Shown in pieces: positions 18,963 to 23,982 of a DNA stretch of 39,689 nucleotides. Both the position numbers and the translations under genes were made by a program. Source of the stretch: Candidatus Woesearchaeota archaeon (lineage in GTDB: Archaea; Nanobdellota; Nanobdellia; Pacearchaeales; GW2011-AR1); NCBI GenBank assembly GCA_964462045.1, contig CAYWWB010000004.1, forward strand, positions 1 to 39,689. Direction: 5' to 3'. How positions within the stretch are numbered: the stretch's first letter is position 1; every line of letters begins with the position of its first letter. The notes under the pieces are model-generated. The model was not told where the DNA came from, did no database searches, and saw only the letters and a program-made list of their open reading frames with translations.

Positions 18963-20411
18963 TTATCTGTTTAAATACCAATTTATTCCTAAACCATATT
19001 TAAAATCTCCAGATTTGCTTTTTTCTCCAAGCCCGGTTTCATATTTTACATTTCCTTCTACTGAAAAACTACTATTATCTTTTCCAGGAAAATACTCTAT
19101 TCCTGCAGAACCTGTAAAAGTAACTTCTTTTCCTAAATTTTTAATATAATTATCTCCTTCTCCATTACCTATCTCAAGTCTTGTTGAATCAACCACATTT
19201 CCATTTGCGTCTTCTGATATTATGTCTGTTGATATCTCCCCTTCATATTGTTGTTTAACATTTCTATAAGTCAATCCAACTTTTCCCTCCAATCCAAAAC
19301 TGTTTGAAATCATTCCGTTAAAACTAATTCCTGCTCCCCATTCATAATTTTGATACATAGGAGTTTTAGTAACATCTTTATTAGTTATAGCATATCTAGT
19401 TGTATCTCCTTCTTTATATAGAGGTTCTTTTTCTTGTTGAAGACTTTCATTTGTAGGTTTTCCTAAATTCCATGTATTATTTTGGTTCCCTATATTATAT
19501 GATATAAAAGGCCCTATTGAAAGATTTTCACTTCCAAATCCCAATGTAAAAGAAGCTTGTCCATAAAGATTGTCTCCAGCTACTACCCCATCAACATCTA
19601 ATTTTGGTTGGAACCAGCTTAAATCAAAATTCCTATTTCCACTTCTCTTCTTACTTTTATCATCATAAGGAGAATAAAAATTATCTTCTTCTACTTCAAC
19701 AATTCCTTGAACTTCACCAGTTGTAGGTTCTATTAAGTCATATTTTTTGGGATAATCTGAGTTTAAAATTCCTTCAAGATTTCCTCTTGATTTTTCTTTA
19801 TCAACTTTCCATCCCCAAATTTCATCAGTTTGAACATAATAGTTTTCTCTGTTGTCTGTTACACCAATTTCTTGAACATCATCTTTGTATGCCCAAACAA
19901 CATTTTGTTTTTCTCCATTTCCTGAAGGTTGGTGAAAATAATAAACTGTATCATTTATTCCGTCACTTCCTTTTATAACGAGTGTCTTAAATAAATTTGA
20001 GAAATCTTTTGTTTTAATTTCTAATTTATCTCCTTGAAAATCTAAGTTTTTTGTATCATATTGAGGAGTAGCATCTTCTGGTTTTTTTGCAAATTGACCA
20101 GAATTATTTAATATAATTCTATTTCCTTCAATTTCATAAGGAGAAAATACAACACTAGGTTTATTACCATTCATTTTACTAACAGGATATTTTTCAATTC
20201 CCAAAGGATTATCTCTTGATTCTTTAATTTCTTTAAAAGCGTAAACAGTTCCATGTTCCATGATAGCTTCTTGAGTTTCACTACTTCCCACAGAACCAGA
20301 TTGAGTAAAATCAACATCTTGAGCTTTAACATTAGGTGATAAAGCTGTAAGAGCTGCTAATCCTAAACCTCCTAAAAGGCTTTTGAATTTGTTTGTTTTT
20401 TTGTTTGTCAT
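18963..20411 (-). CDS. Secreted 482-aa protein whose C-terminal half looks like a transmembrane beta-barrel (OMP-like)
   Basis: Signal peptide FKSLLGGLGLAALTALSPNVKA/QD. C-terminal half has alternating Gly/aromatic-rich strands: YGQASFTLGFGSENLSIGPFISYNIG, YEWGAGISFNGMISNSFGLEGKVGLTYRN, VTFTGSAGIEYFPGKDNSSFSVEGNVKYETG, and terminal FKYGLGINWYLNR. Confidence 0.75.
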   Translation of the reverse strand: MTNKKTNKFKSLLGGLGLAALTALSPNVKAQDVDFTQSGSVGSSETQEAIMEHGTVYAFKEIKESRDNPLGIEKYPVSKMNGNKPSVVFSPYEIEGNRIILNNSGQFAKKPEDATPQYDTKNLDFQGDKLEIKTKDFSNLFKTLVIKGSDGINDTVYYFHQPSGNGEKQNVVWAYKDDVQEIGVTDNRENYYVQTDEIWGWKVDKEKSRGNLEGILNSDYPKKYDLIEPTTGEVQGIVEVEEDNFYSPYDDKSKKRSGNRNFDLSWFQPKLDVDGVVAGDNLYGQASFTLGFGSENLSIGPFISYNIGNQNNTWNLGKPTNESLQQEKEPLYKEGDTTRYAITNKDVTKTPMYQNYEWGAGISFNGMISNSFGLEGKVGLTYRNVKQQYEGEISTDIISEDANGNVVDSTRLEIGNGEGDNYIKNLGKEVTFTGSAGIEYFPGKDNSSFSVEGNVKYETGLGEKSKSGDFKYGLGINWYLNR

Positions 20412-20726
20412 TTTTATTGTTTTTTTGAATTTTTTAATCTTTATAAACCTTTTGGTTTGTTGTTATTGAAAGGTTTAAACACTTTTGTGTTATTGTAAAA
20501 TAGTTAATTACAACTACTTTATAAATTTTTCGGTTTTTAACTATGATTAAGTAAAAACAAAATTTCAGAGTTTTTTCGAATATAAAAATATTTGTATTAT
20601 TTAAGATATGTGTTTTTGTCGTCAATAAAAAAATAAAAAGAAAGATAAATTCATTGGGTGTCATCAGGAAATCAAAAAAAGGAAAACATTTTCTGGAAGG
20701 GTTGTTTTGTAGTATATTAATTAGGG

Positions 20727-20916
20727 GGTTCTCGTTTCATTTGGATTTCTTTTAGGAAATACGGATGAATGGAAATCTCTGATTTACTTTTTGTCTAATC
20801 TTTTTTTGAAAAAGATCTTCATGGTAGGTTCTCGTTTCATTTGGATTTCTTTTAGGAAATACGGATGAATGGAAATCTCTGATTTACTTTTTGTCTAATC
20901 TTTTTTTGAAAAAGAT
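20727..20916. repeat. Two perfect 90-bp direct copies (20727..20816, 20827..20916) separated by a 10-nt spacer
   Basis: ggttctcgtttcatttggatttcttttaggaaatacggatgaatggaaatctctgatttactttttgtctaatctttttttgaaaaagat occurs twice with a period of exactly 100 nt. Each copy ends in the palindrome atcttttt..aaaaagat. Confidence 0.95.
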
Positions 20917-20930
20917 TATTTGAAAGATAC

Positions 20931-20949
20931 ATGCGCGAGCCGGGATTCG
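20931..20949 (-). other. Orphan 19-nt copy of the tRNA-Gly 3' end (T-loop to discriminator, plus 1 nt); att-like scar
   Basis: atgcgcgagccgggattcg at 20931..20949 is identical to 21036..21054 in the intact tRNA-Gly, in the same orientation, 87 nt downstream of the gene. Confidence 0.85.
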
Positions 20950-21036
20950 TGCGAAAAGCAAGTTTTCGCGTCATTCGCTAAAATCAAAGATTTTATCAAA
21001 TGAAACTCCGTTCGAATCCCCTATTTTTTTGCAGAA

Positions 21037-21107
21037 TGCGCGAGCCGGGATTCGAACCCGGGCCACATCGTTGGCAACGACGCATTCTACCACTGAACTA
21101 CTCACGC
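21037..21107 (-). tRNA. tRNA-Gly(GCC)
   Basis: Minus strand reads GCGTGAG-TA-GTTC-AGTGGTA-GAAT-G-CGTCG-TTGCCAA-CGATG-TGGC-CCGGG-TTCGAAT-CCCGG-CTCGCGC-A. Full cloverleaf, anticodon GCC, no encoded CCA, no intron. Confidence 0.95.
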
Positions 21108-21126
21108 TTTTTAATAATAAAAGAGA

Positions 21127-21756
21127 TTATTTGGTTTTTTTAAAATATTCTAATAAAGAAATATATGTCTTAGGATTTTTAGAATGTAATTCTCCTTTGT
21201 CCCAAGGGATATTAGATGTTTTTAAAATTCCATCTGCATTTACATTTCTTATTAATGTATTATAATTACTAATGTTTTCTTTTGTTAAAAAATATGCTGA
21301 ACCTTTAACCCCTTTTGGAATTTCTGCTAAATAAACTTGTATTTTTTTGTCATGCAAGTCATTTACAATATTTTGAAGTGATTTTTTTATTTTATAATCT
21401 GGTGCCCACCTACTATTAGTTCCTTCAAAAAGAATAATCTTATTTGAATTTACTTTTTTTAATTCAGAAATTACACTAGGCAATTCATTTTCAATATTAA
21501 AAATTGTTCTTCCCTCATATGAAAATTTATCGCAGTTTTCACACCCCATCATATCTGAATTAGTGATATCACTATCTTCAATAATAATATTTTCTAATTT
21601 TTGGTTGTTTTTTGTTAAATAATTATTCAAAGCAACTATATGTGAATTTCCAAGAACAACAGCGGGTGAGATTTTTTTTGTTTGTTGAGAATGTAAATTA
21701 TAATTAATACCTAGTGTCAAGGTTAATGCGAGCAGTGTGTTTGCTATCTTTCCCAT
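21127..21756 (-). CDS. Secreted 209-aa protein (weak SGNH/GDSL-hydrolase-like resemblance) lying between two tRNA genes
   Basis: Signal peptide MGKIANTLLALTLTLGINYNLHS. VVLGNSHIV and ILFEGTNS are loosely reminiscent of SGNH blocks I and III. The ATG is 2 nt after the tRNA-Val 3' end; the stop is 19 nt before the tRNA-Gly 5' end. Confidence 0.65.
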   Translation of the reverse strand: MGKIANTLLALTLTLGINYNLHSQQTKKISPAVVLGNSHIVALNNYLTKNNQKLENIIIEDSDITNSDMMGCENCDKFSYEGRTIFNIENELPSVISELKKVNSNKIILFEGTNSRWAPDYKIKKSLQNIVNDLHDKKIQVYLAEIPKGVKGSAYFLTKENISNYNTLIRNVNADGILKTSNIPWDKGELHSKNPKTYISLLEYFKKTK

Positions 21757-21758
21757 AA

Positions 21759-21831
21759 TGGACCCGGCAGGAATCGAACCTGCGATCTTCTCGGTGTAAA
21801 CGAGATGTCATAACCCCTAGACCACGGGTCC
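21759..21831 (-). tRNA. tRNA-Val(UAC)
   Basis: Minus strand reads GGACCCG-TG-GTCT-AGGGGTTA-TGAC-A-TCTCG-TTTACAC-CGAGA-AGATC-GCAGG-TTCGATT-CCTGC-CGGGTCC-A. Anticodon TAC, no encoded CCA, no intron. Confidence 0.95.
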
Positions 21832-22025
21832 ATGTTTTTGTTAGACCCGTTCAAAAAACCTTTTGGTTTTTAGTTGTTTCGTCTTTCCATCATTTGAAGC
21901 GGAAATCCAAAACAGACCACGGGTCCATGTTTTTGTTAGACCCGTTCAAAAAACCTTTTGGTTTTTAGTTGTTTCGTCTTTCCATCATTTGAAGCGGAAA
22001 TCCAAAACAGACCACGGGTCCATGT
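21819..22025. repeat. Perfect 95-bp tandem repeat (2 full units plus a 17-nt third copy) that includes the first 13 nt of tRNA-Val and its upstream leader
   Basis: Units at 21819..21913 and 21914..22008, partial copy at 22009..22025. Each starts with agaccacgggtccatgt, the reverse complement of acat+GGACCCGTGGTCT. Confidence 0.95.
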
Positions 22026-22140
22026 GTTTTTTATTAAATATTTAATAAAGTTGTAACTTTTAAAGTTTTTCTTTATAAAAAAAGTTATCTAAAAGATAGT
22101 GATAACAACATTTAAAAATAAAAAGTAATTTATTTAATGC

Positions 22141-23982
22141 ATGGTTAACGATAAAAATAAAATTCCTGGAATGGAATTAAATGACACTAAAAAATATTCT
22201 AATTCTCAAACTTCAACATCTCCAGAAAATAATCCTAATGGTTCTGTTTCGCAAGGAAATTCTCAACAAAACGAAGAACAAAAAAAAGAAAATGAAAGAA
22301 TAAAAAAGATAATGGAAAAATTAAAAAGCACTATTTTAGAAAAATATTCTTTTATCCAATCAATAAGTATTTTGCCTCCTCAATCAATTAAAGTTTTCAT
22401 AGATGAAGAAGAAGTCCCAAAAGAAACTGAAAAACACCACCACCTAAATATAGTTGTTCCAGATAAAAAAGAAAAAAAATTGCCTGAAATAAAGAAAGAC
22501 ATTGTAAAAGAAATTGAAAAAACTAAAGAGTATATTTGGTTACATTTAAGGACCCCTCAAGAAATATGGGGAATTTGTTTGGATTCAAAATTTGAAATTT
22601 TTAGTGCTATTGCTATGTCATATCCATTATATGATAAAGGAATTTTAGGAGCTATGAGGGTCACAGAAATCCATAAATCAATGGTTTTACAAAAATTTGA
22701 CAAATATGTTGTTTCTTATGTTTTAGGCGGAAGTATGATAAGAGGAGAAGCAAAAAAAACTTCTGATATTGATGTTTTCTTAATTATTAATGATACTGAT
22801 GTTAAAAGAATGCCTCGTTTGGAATTAAAAGAAAGATTAAGAGGAATGATTTATCAATATGTTAGTGAAGCTATGGGAATGGCTGGAGTTAAAATGCAGT
22901 TAGAACCTCAGATTTATTTATTAACTGATTTCTGGGAAGCAATGAAAGATGCTCACCCAGTAATGTTTACTTTCATTAGAGATGGTGTTCCAATTTATGA
23001 TAGAGGAACTTTCATGCCTTGGAAATCTTTATTAAATATGGGTAAACTTAAACCAAGTCCTGAAGCTATTGATATGTTTATGTCTATGGGAGACAATACA
23101 AGAAAAAGAATTGAAAGGGCGCAATTAGATTTAGTTGTAGGAGATATTTATTGGGGAACCATAACTCCGAGCCAGGCTTTATTAATGCTTTATGGAGTTG
23201 CACCTCCTTCGCCAAAGCAAGTTGTTCCTGAAATGAAAAAAATATTTGTTGAAAAAGAAAAAATGCTTGAAAAAAAATATATTGACATCCTAGAAAAAAT
23301 TGTTATTAAATATTATAAGGGGTATGAGCACGGGAAAGTAAAGAAAGTTTCAGGTAAAGAAGTTGATATGCTTTTAGAGGAAATGGAAGAATACAATAAA
23401 AGAATGAAAGAGTTAAGAAAACAAATTGAAAAAAGAACCGATGAAAGAACCATTGAACAATTCTACAAAGATGTTTTTGAATTATTGAAATCAATTTTAG
23501 GGAATAAAGCAAAAGAAAAAATAGTTGAAGAATTTAATAAAAAAATGGTAAAAACAGGAAAATTTTCTCCCCAACATTTGAGGATTTTAAAGAACATTGT
23601 TAAAGCAAGAGAAGAATTCAAAAAAGGGAAACTTGATACTCATAGAGTTCATCAAGCAAGAAGAGAATCTAGAACCCTTATTAATGATTTAATAGAATAT
23701 TCTCAAAGATGTGAATTAATGCCTTTAGAAAAAGGGAGATTTTATTTGAAATATAAAGAGAAAGGCAAGGAAAAAAATGCTGAATTATTAAGTTACAATG
23801 GAAAAGCATTTTTATTAAAACAAAATGAAATCAAGAAAATAACAAACAAAATTGAAGAATCAAATCTTGAAGAAATTAATAAAGAGGCTGAAAAACAAAA
23901 AAGTAAAAAGGAAATTGAATTAAAACCAGAAGTATTTAAATTAATAAAGAAAGAACTTGGAAATTATGAAATTGTTCTTTGA
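22141..23982 (+). CDS. Large (613 aa) Pol-beta-superfamily nucleotidyltransferase-domain protein with helical C-terminal extension
   Basis: NTase signature LGGSMIRGEAKKTSDIDVFLIIND. The downstream helical block GKLKPSPEAIDMF...YWGTITPSQALLMLYGVAPPSPKQVVPEM is paralogous to ORF 26780..27742. Long Lys/Glu-rich coiled tail. Confidence 0.8.
   Translation: MVNDKNKIPGMELNDTKKYSNSQTSTSPENNPNGSVSQGNSQQNEEQKKENERIKKIMEKLKSTILEKYSFIQSISILPPQSIKVFIDEEEVPKETEKHHHLNIVVPDKKEKKLPEIKKDIVKEIEKTKEYIWLHLRTPQEIWGICLDSKFEIFSAIAMSYPLYDKGILGAMRVTEIHKSMVLQKFDKYVVSYVLGGSMIRGEAKKTSDIDVFLIINDTDVKRMPRLELKERLRGMIYQYVSEAMGMAGVKMQLEPQIYLLTDFWEAMKDAHPVMFTFIRDGVPIYDRGTFMPWKSLLNMGKLKPSPEAIDMFMSMGDNTRKRIERAQLDLVVGDIYWGTITPSQALLMLYGVAPPSPKQVVPEMKKIFVEKEKMLEKKYIDILEKIVIKYYKGYEHGKVKKVSGKEVDMLLEEMEEYNKRMKELRKQIEKRTDERTIEQFYKDVFELLKSILGNKAKEKIVEEFNKKMVKTGKFSPQHLRILKNIVKAREEFKKGKLDTHRVHQARRESRTLINDLIEYSQRCELMPLEKGRFYLKYKEKGKEKNAELLSYNGKAFLLKQNEIKKITNKIEESNLEEINKEAEKQKSKKEIELKPEVFKLIKKELGNYEIVL

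Follow-up and report, generated by a model that had tools for sequence, protein, structure and literature searches.

A tandem array upstream of tRNA-Val in a woesearchaeal genome and the dispersed hairpin repeat contained in its units

Structure of the tRNA-Val locus

The window, i.e. the whole stretch of 39,689 nucleotides analysed here, is one complete contig of the Candidatus Woesearchaeota genome G000 (721 kb, 49 contigs, 28% G+C). An intact tRNA-Val(UAC) gene, in which CCA is not encoded, occupies 21758..21832 on the minus strand (ARAGORN; Rfam tRNA, 68.4 bits). At its 5' end, positions 21819-21913 are identical to positions 21914-22008 in 95 of 95 nucleotides, and 22009-22025 repeats the first 17 nt once more, which gives an array of 2.18 units and confirms the perfect duplication with a third partial copy reported in a preliminary description of this DNA. 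The 95-nt unit is composed of a 17-nt target copy (R) and a 78-nt member of a dispersed repeat (E), so that the layout reads R-E-R-E-R. On the tRNA strand R consists of ACAT followed by GGACCCGTGGTCT, that is, four leader nucleotides and nucleotides 1-13 of tRNA-Val; the unit does copy the 5' end of the tRNA together with its leader, as had been stated. The complete unit, for which a search of the genome had been recommended, has no second site in G000 outside the array.

All parts of the array lie on the minus strand. R copy 1 (21819..21835) belongs to the working gene and is followed by E copy 1 (21836..21913), which was delimited by folding and by a match to the covariance model R1 described below (21867-21917, 64.4 bits). 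R copy 2 (21914..21930) is a decoy tRNA 5' end, E copy 2 (21931..22008; model R1 match 21962-22012) has the same sequence as E copy 1, and R copy 3 (22009..22025), the outermost decoy, adjoins the native promoter region. Read on the tRNA strand, E has three parts: the motif-1 hairpin GUUUUGGAUUUCC-loop-GGAAAGACGAAAC, which folds at 21872-21913 in E copy 1; an A-run/stem/T-run hairpin, AAAAACC-AAAA-GGUUUUUU, listed as A6CC-TTTT-GGT5 at 21853-21871; and the segment GAACGGGUCUAAC. Folding also places an anti-R segment, ACGGGTCTA, at 21842-21850, complementary to the 5' strand of the tRNA. The inverted repeat ACGGGTC (21824-21830)/GACCCGT (21844-21850), from which pairing between the leader and the acceptor 5' strand had been deduced, is present, and when taken as RNA its pairing lengthens in the fold to 9 bp, ACGGGUCUA/UGGACCCGU.

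Two TATA-like boxes read from the sequence, CTTTATTAAATA (22039-22050, minus strand) and CTTTAAAAG (22057-22065, minus strand), lie outside the repeat and would serve as promoter elements; the second is conserved in the related genome G001. Divergently from tRNA-Val, 22141-23982 encodes a 613-aa protein with a Pol-beta-type nucleotidyltransferase domain; the local tRNA genes encode no CCA. Open reading frames (table 11) overlapping 20434-22045 code for only 50-78 aa. One of them, a 76-aa frame at 20434-20664 beside the tRNA-Gly insert and the sole frame of the region that was tested, belongs to no Pfam family. In a search of 20400-22200 against Rfam 15 (E-value <= 10) two tRNAs passed and nothing else, and no family matched the units or E. 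A CRISPR array or solitary CRISPR-like repeat was rejected: both spacers are identical and Cas1 is absent. The single match to a CRISPR-DR family in 20400-22200 lies off the units at 22151-22184 and scores 22 bits against a gathering score of 50, which is chance level.

The repeat family E

Motif 1 recurs across G000. In an alignment of 24 copies its 14-bp stem is paired in 95% of cells, five pairs show changes in both partners, and the observed covariation score was attained by 0 of 500 shuffles. One position is a conserved G.A mismatch, and U.G pairs work on one strand only, which makes the hairpin strand-specific. The covariance model R1, built from this alignment, finds 42 E copies in the 0.72 Mb of G000, including both tRNA-Val units and the repeats at 20727-20916. 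The ends of E are not sharp: the 3' end is usually a T-run and the 5' end is variable. E is a dispersed non-coding repeat family spread through G000, mostly at the ends of tRNA genes, of which our literature searches found no description. Identity of the motif-1 hairpin with a C/D box or K-turn was dismissed; the hairpin lacks a 3-nt bulge and any box motif, and its G.A mismatch is the only one. A reading of R1-E-R2 (E and the R copies on either side) as a T-loop intron of the bulge-helix-bulge type was set aside after a check by hand, since the splice-site flanks lack the central 4-bp helix.

Other small modules accompany tRNA genes of G000. A second hairpin family, AAAAGATCTCT-aa-AGAGATTTT (C14:1-130, C10:15386-15470, C1:30530-30615; C denotes contigs), stands between a promoter-proximal 5' copy (nt 1-25) and the true gene at tRNA-Ile(GAT), an intron-bearing tRNA on C10 and tRNA-Lys(CTT), and the intron of the C10 tRNA holds a similar hairpin. 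A third module is present in the trailers of several tRNAs, in places in tandem (C3:38618-38830, C23:5607-5840, C12:4300-4331 and 20880-20925 of the window); it consists of the palindrome GTATCTTTT-N-AAAAGATAC and, after it, ACTACAAA.

Filled and empty sites

Comparison with the congeneric genome G001 reveals sites that are filled by E in G000 and empty in the relative. Behind tRNA-Gly(GCC) of the window (21037..21107, minus strand; ARAGORN, Rfam) lies an insert of 404 nt (20632..21035, minus strand), whereas in G001 the tRNA runs straight into a trailer homologous to window position 20631 and lower coordinates. The insert comprises an 86-nt variant of E in which one segment is complementary to the T-loop, 19 nt copied from the 3' end of tRNA-Gly (20931-20949) and a pair of 100-nt repeats (20727-20916, 90 nt identical), each with a motif-1 hairpin on the plus strand, opposite to the tRNA. 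The same is seen between protein genes. At C5:12384, G001 has a single AAATCAATGAAATAAAATGAC.GAA.AAAA, which bridges two ribosomal-operon genes and covers the stop codon of the first as well as the start codon of the second, and in G000 a stretch of 30-32 nt occurs twice around an E of 58-60 nt, with both genes intact. At C1:35085 of G000 a 32-nt gene start is duplicated around an E of 78-79 nt, and the G001 site is empty. Three E copies lie between ribosomal-protein genes at C5:12384-14910.

The non-tRNA copies of E are flanked by direct repeats of 17-32 nt. One E copy lies directly against the RNase P RNA gene (C8:19828-20253, 122 bits) at its 3' end, with a 17-nt duplication of the gene end that has one mismatch. 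Among other genera, G045 has three tandem E copies inside a 17-nt direct repeat between protein genes, and in G050 an E between protein genes is accompanied by a diverged duplication of approximately 41 nt that covers a gene start. At the E copies sampled from other genera, ARAGORN run without the intron option found no tRNA nearby; one of the ten loci (L022), which is from G002 of the same genus, has one. Overall the duplications vary from 13 to 55 nt and the inserts from 58 to 140 nt.

These comparisons show that E enters gene boundaries, above all tRNA ends, and that the sequence it displaces is duplicated, such that an intact gene always remains beside a truncated decoy. The invariable extension of R to the gene end is probably in part survivorship, because single-copy tRNA genes allow only those insertions to persist whose duplication restores the gene. 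The filled and empty sites and the distribution of the copies suggest that E is a mobile element, albeit one with ragged ends and no enzyme tied to it.

Partial self-copies of tRNA genes

Of the 42 E copies, 28 are located within 300 nt of a tRNA gene predicted by ARAGORN, a distance that covers 3.2% of the genome. Among these tRNA-adjacent copies 24 are downstream and 23 on the tRNA strand. Twenty of the 33 tRNA genes of G000 (approximately 60%) carry a partial copy of themselves, mostly an exact one. In 15 of them an exact 18-55-nt copy of the gene's own 3' part lies 87-230 nt downstream (304 nt for a third copy). These exact copies always start in the T-loop, at positions 53-59 of a standard tRNA (ARAGORN position numbers are higher for tRNAs with an intron or a long arm), and reach the 3' end of the tRNA or up to about 40 nt past it; three further tRNAs have 3' copies of 13-16 nt. 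Copies of the 5' part occur in five tRNAs (Val-TAC, Ile-GAT, Lys-CTT, Glu-TTC and the intron-bearing tRNA at C10:15263), directly behind the promoter, and extend from about -4/+1 to positions 13-25.

In tRNA-adjacent E copies a segment of 9-12 nt just upstream of motif 1, TTCGAATCC, TTCAAATCC, TTCAATTCC or TTCGATTC, is complementary to the T-loop/T-stem of the neighbouring tRNA. The longest complement averages 7.9 nt for the segment of the own tRNA and 5.4 nt when segments and tRNAs are mismatched; Arg-TCG clearly departs from this pattern.

The gene at C10:15263-15385 is called tRNA-Stop(tta) with a 48-nt intron by ARAGORN; a reading of its anticodon loop as C-U-UUU-A suggests tRNA-Lys(UUU) with the intron at the canonical 37/38 position. 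In G001 an intron-bearing tRNA overlooked by ARAGORN (L010, C39 of G001, 620-960), in which the anticodon loop reads GUA (Tyr), has two perfect 114-nt units behind it, and in each of these a motif-1 hairpin is combined with a 19-nt tRNA 3' copy. This array is the 3'-side counterpart of the array at tRNA-Val.

Some self-copy loci span 100-N gaps or contig ends, and a few are incompletely assembled. Gaps of 100 N or contig ends fall inside elements at C1:30693-30850, C6:13600-13720, C23:6215-6330 and several contig ends, and for seven E copies a contig end is no more than 300 nt away. The E family is a main cause of the fragmentation of the G000 assembly.

Distribution and age of the insertion

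Among 61 genomes sampled across the family, model R1 finds E in seven (42, 17, 16, 15 and 4 copies and, in two genomes, a single one); the remaining 54, which represent 54 different genera, give no match to the model. G001, which is outside this sample, carries E as well. The pattern of the main subfamily is present in one further Woesearchaeota MAG only among 185,579 species genomes, and it has no match in viral contigs.

In G002, which belongs to the same genus, and in G017, G019 and G025 tRNA-Val(TAC) is a plain promoter-tRNA arrangement with no element. G001 has an orthologous insertion of 1.4 units with 83% identity, so the insertion at tRNA-Val is older than the split of G000 and G001. 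The second unit of G000, in which the copies are perfectly identical, appears from the sequence to be much younger than that split, in agreement with the recent event proposed in the preliminary description. In G001 the tRNA and the R copy have GGACTCG and the leader complement ACGAGT, in place of GGACCCG and ACGGGTC in G000. Because the tRNA, R and the leader complement of G001 changed together, the R copies undergo concerted evolution and their pairing seems to be important; either selection on the pairing or gene conversion is suggested by the joint change, which would also fit a functional leader.

Copy number in sequencing runs

The preliminary description had advised a check of copy number against an assembly artefact. 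The evidence consists of assembled Logan unitigs, not raw reads, and runs X1-X3 may include the source sample of the assembly. The 112-nt unit node has a depth of 37.1 in X1, 30.4 in X2 and 66.5 in X3 against flanks of 18-19, 13-14 and 37, i.e. about twice the flank depth in all three. A 43-nt unitig corresponding to 21901-21943, which is possible only across a unit-to-unit junction, has depths of 14.6, 11.2 and 37.4, approximately the level of the flanks. These values fit exactly two units in nearly all cells of the X1-X3 samples. In run X8, from another study and a strain of about 92% identity, one contig skips exactly 95 nt, which is one unit, and run X5 of the same study contains the junction unitig and hence at least two units.

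The number of units is accordingly 0 in G002, 1 in X8, 1.4 in G001 and 2.18 in G000. Since it differs in this way, the doubling looks like recent unequal recombination or slippage. A tandem unit number that differs among close strains is what defines a minisatellite (VNTR), and the tandem repeat is a young, probably near-neutral change in copy number; comparison of the locus in relatives had been suggested, with variable copy number and no transcripts named as a sign of a neutral slippage product.

Leader pairing and expression of tRNA-Val

The only valine tRNA genes found in G000 are Val-TAC and Val-GAC, and tRNA-Val(TAC) should therefore be essential. As the TATA-like boxes lie outside the repeat, it must be transcribed through the array or from an unrecognised start. 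Within the unit there is no TATA-like box, and on the tRNA strand the T6 run present in every unit would be expected to impede transcription that starts at the upstream promoter and has to reach the essential tRNA. Promoter multiplication, one of three explanations offered initially for the array, finds no support in the position of the boxes or in the terminator-like T6 hairpin that the unit carries instead. The RNase P RNA is present in G000, and RNase P could remove the long leader. The sole RNA run, X14, contained foreign tRNA only.

The tRNA-Val precursor folds far better than its shuffles (z = -7.6). The strands balance in number, three GGACCCG facing two leader complements and the 3' strand of the tRNA. 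Each unit may thus neutralise its decoy 5' strand with its own complement, so that the true 5' strand is left for the acceptor stem. The minimum-free-energy fold instead has a shifted register in which the outermost decoy is paired with the 3' strand of the tRNA, so that misfolding is a real risk.

Origin of the array

We consider it probable, at roughly 0.75, that the array consists of two R+E units which arose by insertion of E with duplication of the target, followed by a minisatellite-like change in unit number. According to this scenario, the common ancestor of G000 and G001 would have acquired E within the 5' part of its tRNA-Val gene, which generated R-E-R, either through an enzyme that cuts the two strands far apart or by copy-choice (template switching) at T-rich microhomologies. 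The number of units would then have changed as the R (or E) copies recombined unequally or slipped during replication, and the G000 lineage would recently have gained a second, still identical unit, R-E-R-E-R. Transcription of tRNA-Val would still proceed from the old promoter through the array, RNase P would trim the leader of approximately 200 nt, and each decoy R would pair with ACGGGUCUA of its own unit, freeing the real 5' strand for the acceptor stem.

Recombination, the second of the three initial explanations, came nearest: the R copies are scars of recombination, but the att sites of an integrase are another matter. If remnants or trans-mobilised elements had recombined with tRNA genes, tandem integration would also give R-E-R-E-R. 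The 3' copies from the T-loop to the end of the tRNA have the classic sublocation of integrase sites, partial tRNA copies left by integration are common in archaea (PMC9897764), and four of the six multicopy E-bearing genomes have two strong Xer-like genes, most E-free genomes one. R, however, often continues 10-40 nt into a trailer specific to the locus, which an incoming element could not have carried; E also lies between protein genes, where the duplications are purely local sequence; the small inserts contain neither an integrase gene nor a remnant of one; the copy at tRNA-Val is at the 5' end and separates the gene from its promoter; and both Xer-like genes stand in ordinary chromosomal contexts. 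Integrase scars are thus a quite improbable source of R. An origin of the tandem repeat by replication slippage alone, in an ordinary tRNA leader and without any element, would account for the perfect identity and the strain-variable copy number, yet the 78-nt spacer scores 64 bits with a model from other G000 loci, and slippage needs a pre-existing 17-nt flanking repeat on which to act; we regard it as very improbable. The chance that the array is an artefact of assembly or scaffolding is negligible: several E copies elsewhere do coincide with 100-N gaps and contig ends, but here the junction unitig and the doubled unit depth recur in three runs, and a one-unit allele and the junction unitig come from another study.

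More weight, although not much, may be given to the view that the array is a functional leader in which decoys and hairpins act as small RNAs or regulate the folding or processing of tRNA-Val, with identity of the units kept by selection. The hairpin is strand-specific and covarying, the pairing of leader and acceptor covaries between G000 and G001, and the balanced strand count and the precursor fold point in the same direction. Against this stand tRNA-Val genes without the element in G002 and other genera, copy numbers that vary among strains, the occurrence of E at unrelated gene boundaries as well and the lack of any Rfam family match, and together they make a function of this kind improbable. 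Insertion of E with later change in unit number leaves room for a further, speculative proposal, which we think rather unlikely: E would spread by itself without a transposase of its own, and its tRNA-adjacent form would carry a short guide that matches the T-loop by complementarity (the acceptor 5' strand in the case of tRNA-Val) and directs insertion next to the complement. If true, the displaced gene end would always be duplicated, through staggered cleavage or copy-choice, which would render insertion harmless where tRNA genes are single-copy.

Search for an enzyme

The E-bearing genomes are incomplete MAGs, and negative results apply to them as such. Retrotransposition had come to mind in view of the T-run at the 3' end and the variable duplications, but no reverse transcriptase (RVT_1) occurs in any E-rich genome, and it was discarded. 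Cas1 is likewise absent from the E-rich genomes, and the distribution of DDE_Tnp_1, Y1_Tnp, RVT_1 and Cas1 in these incomplete MAGs does not track that of E. A partner of the IS4/IS1634 type was rejected for want of a correlation with E and of the hairpin on transposase contigs: a large IS1634-type DDE transposase was not detected in G000, and the scanned transposase contigs of G001, G002, G045 and G058 lack the motif-1 hairpin. The transposase of G002, which from reading its sequence we take to be IS1182-like, has no hairpin at its ends. A Y1/HUH partner was dropped in turn, Y1_Tnp being absent from G000 and from most of the E-bearing genomes searched.

The four multicopy E-bearing genomes with two strong Xer-like recombinase genes are G000, G001, G002 and G058. 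In G000 these are full-length genes for Xer-like tyrosine recombinases at C24:8390-9238 and C28:96-923, and because of their ordinary surroundings the excess is only a lead. Copy-choice is a serious option, since the ends of E are ragged and the junctions T-rich.

Comparison with known systems and significance

E resembles MITEs and other small non-autonomous prokaryotic repeats in that it is short, non-coding, multicopy, patchy in distribution and intergenic, and in its presence or absence at corresponding sites of relatives. The archaea reported to have the highest MITE density include a woesearchaeal genome (PMC11602168). E differs from MITEs in that its non-tRNA copies lack terminal inverted repeats (at least 10-15 bp in MITEs), its flanking duplications vary from 13 to 55 nt in place of a fixed 2-10 nt, its ends are ragged and no partner transposase was found. 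In tRNA-adjacent copies the 9-12-nt T-loop complement does face the duplicated T-loop, but the latter arm is target sequence.

REP/BIME and IS200/IS605-derived elements insert without target duplication and depend on a Y1 (HUH) transposase. E shares with their hairpins an imperfect, strand-specific, extragenic structure without inverted ends, but it duplicates its target, and Y1_Tnp is missing as described. The mycobacterial MIRU minisatellites are intergenic units of 50-100 bp whose tandem number varies among strains and which keep the neighbouring genes usable. The tRNA-Val array is similar in unit size, in the strain-variable tandem number and in leaving its neighbours usable; E, in contrast, is hairpin-based, associated with tRNA ends and flanked by long target duplications. 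IS1549 and IS1634 (IS1634 family) are elements of 1.5-2 kb with a large DDE transposase and inverted ends. Like E they give rise to long target duplications whose length varies, and no model accounts for these (PMC2266710); unlike them, E is found in a genome without a detected large DDE transposase, and the scanned contigs of the other E-bearing genomes carry no hairpin beside the transposase. The E duplications also resemble an animal analogue, products of repair or replication that consist of a tandem duplication with a patch inserted into it (PMC8654963). With the att duplications of integrative elements at tRNA genes, R has in common a truncated copy from the T-loop to the 3' end beside an intact gene (PMC9897764), but the insert measures approximately 60-140 nt and not kilobases, there is no integrase, R continues into the local trailer, and E is also located at protein-gene boundaries and at a tRNA 5' end.

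The E element is the more interesting result than the tandem repeat itself. The array raises the question of how expression and folding of an essential tRNA are achieved when two decoy 5' ends and two T6 runs precede it. For annotation, tRNA fragments in such genomes are not evidence of integrated viruses, and E explains many contig breaks and N-gaps in assemblies of this kind. E is moreover a natural system for the study of long variable target duplications, the mechanism of which is unexplained even in IS1549/IS1634. Ultra-small DPANN genomes are usually described as streamlined; in this genome of 0.7 Mb about 60% of the tRNA genes are accompanied by truncated copies of themselves made by one small element.
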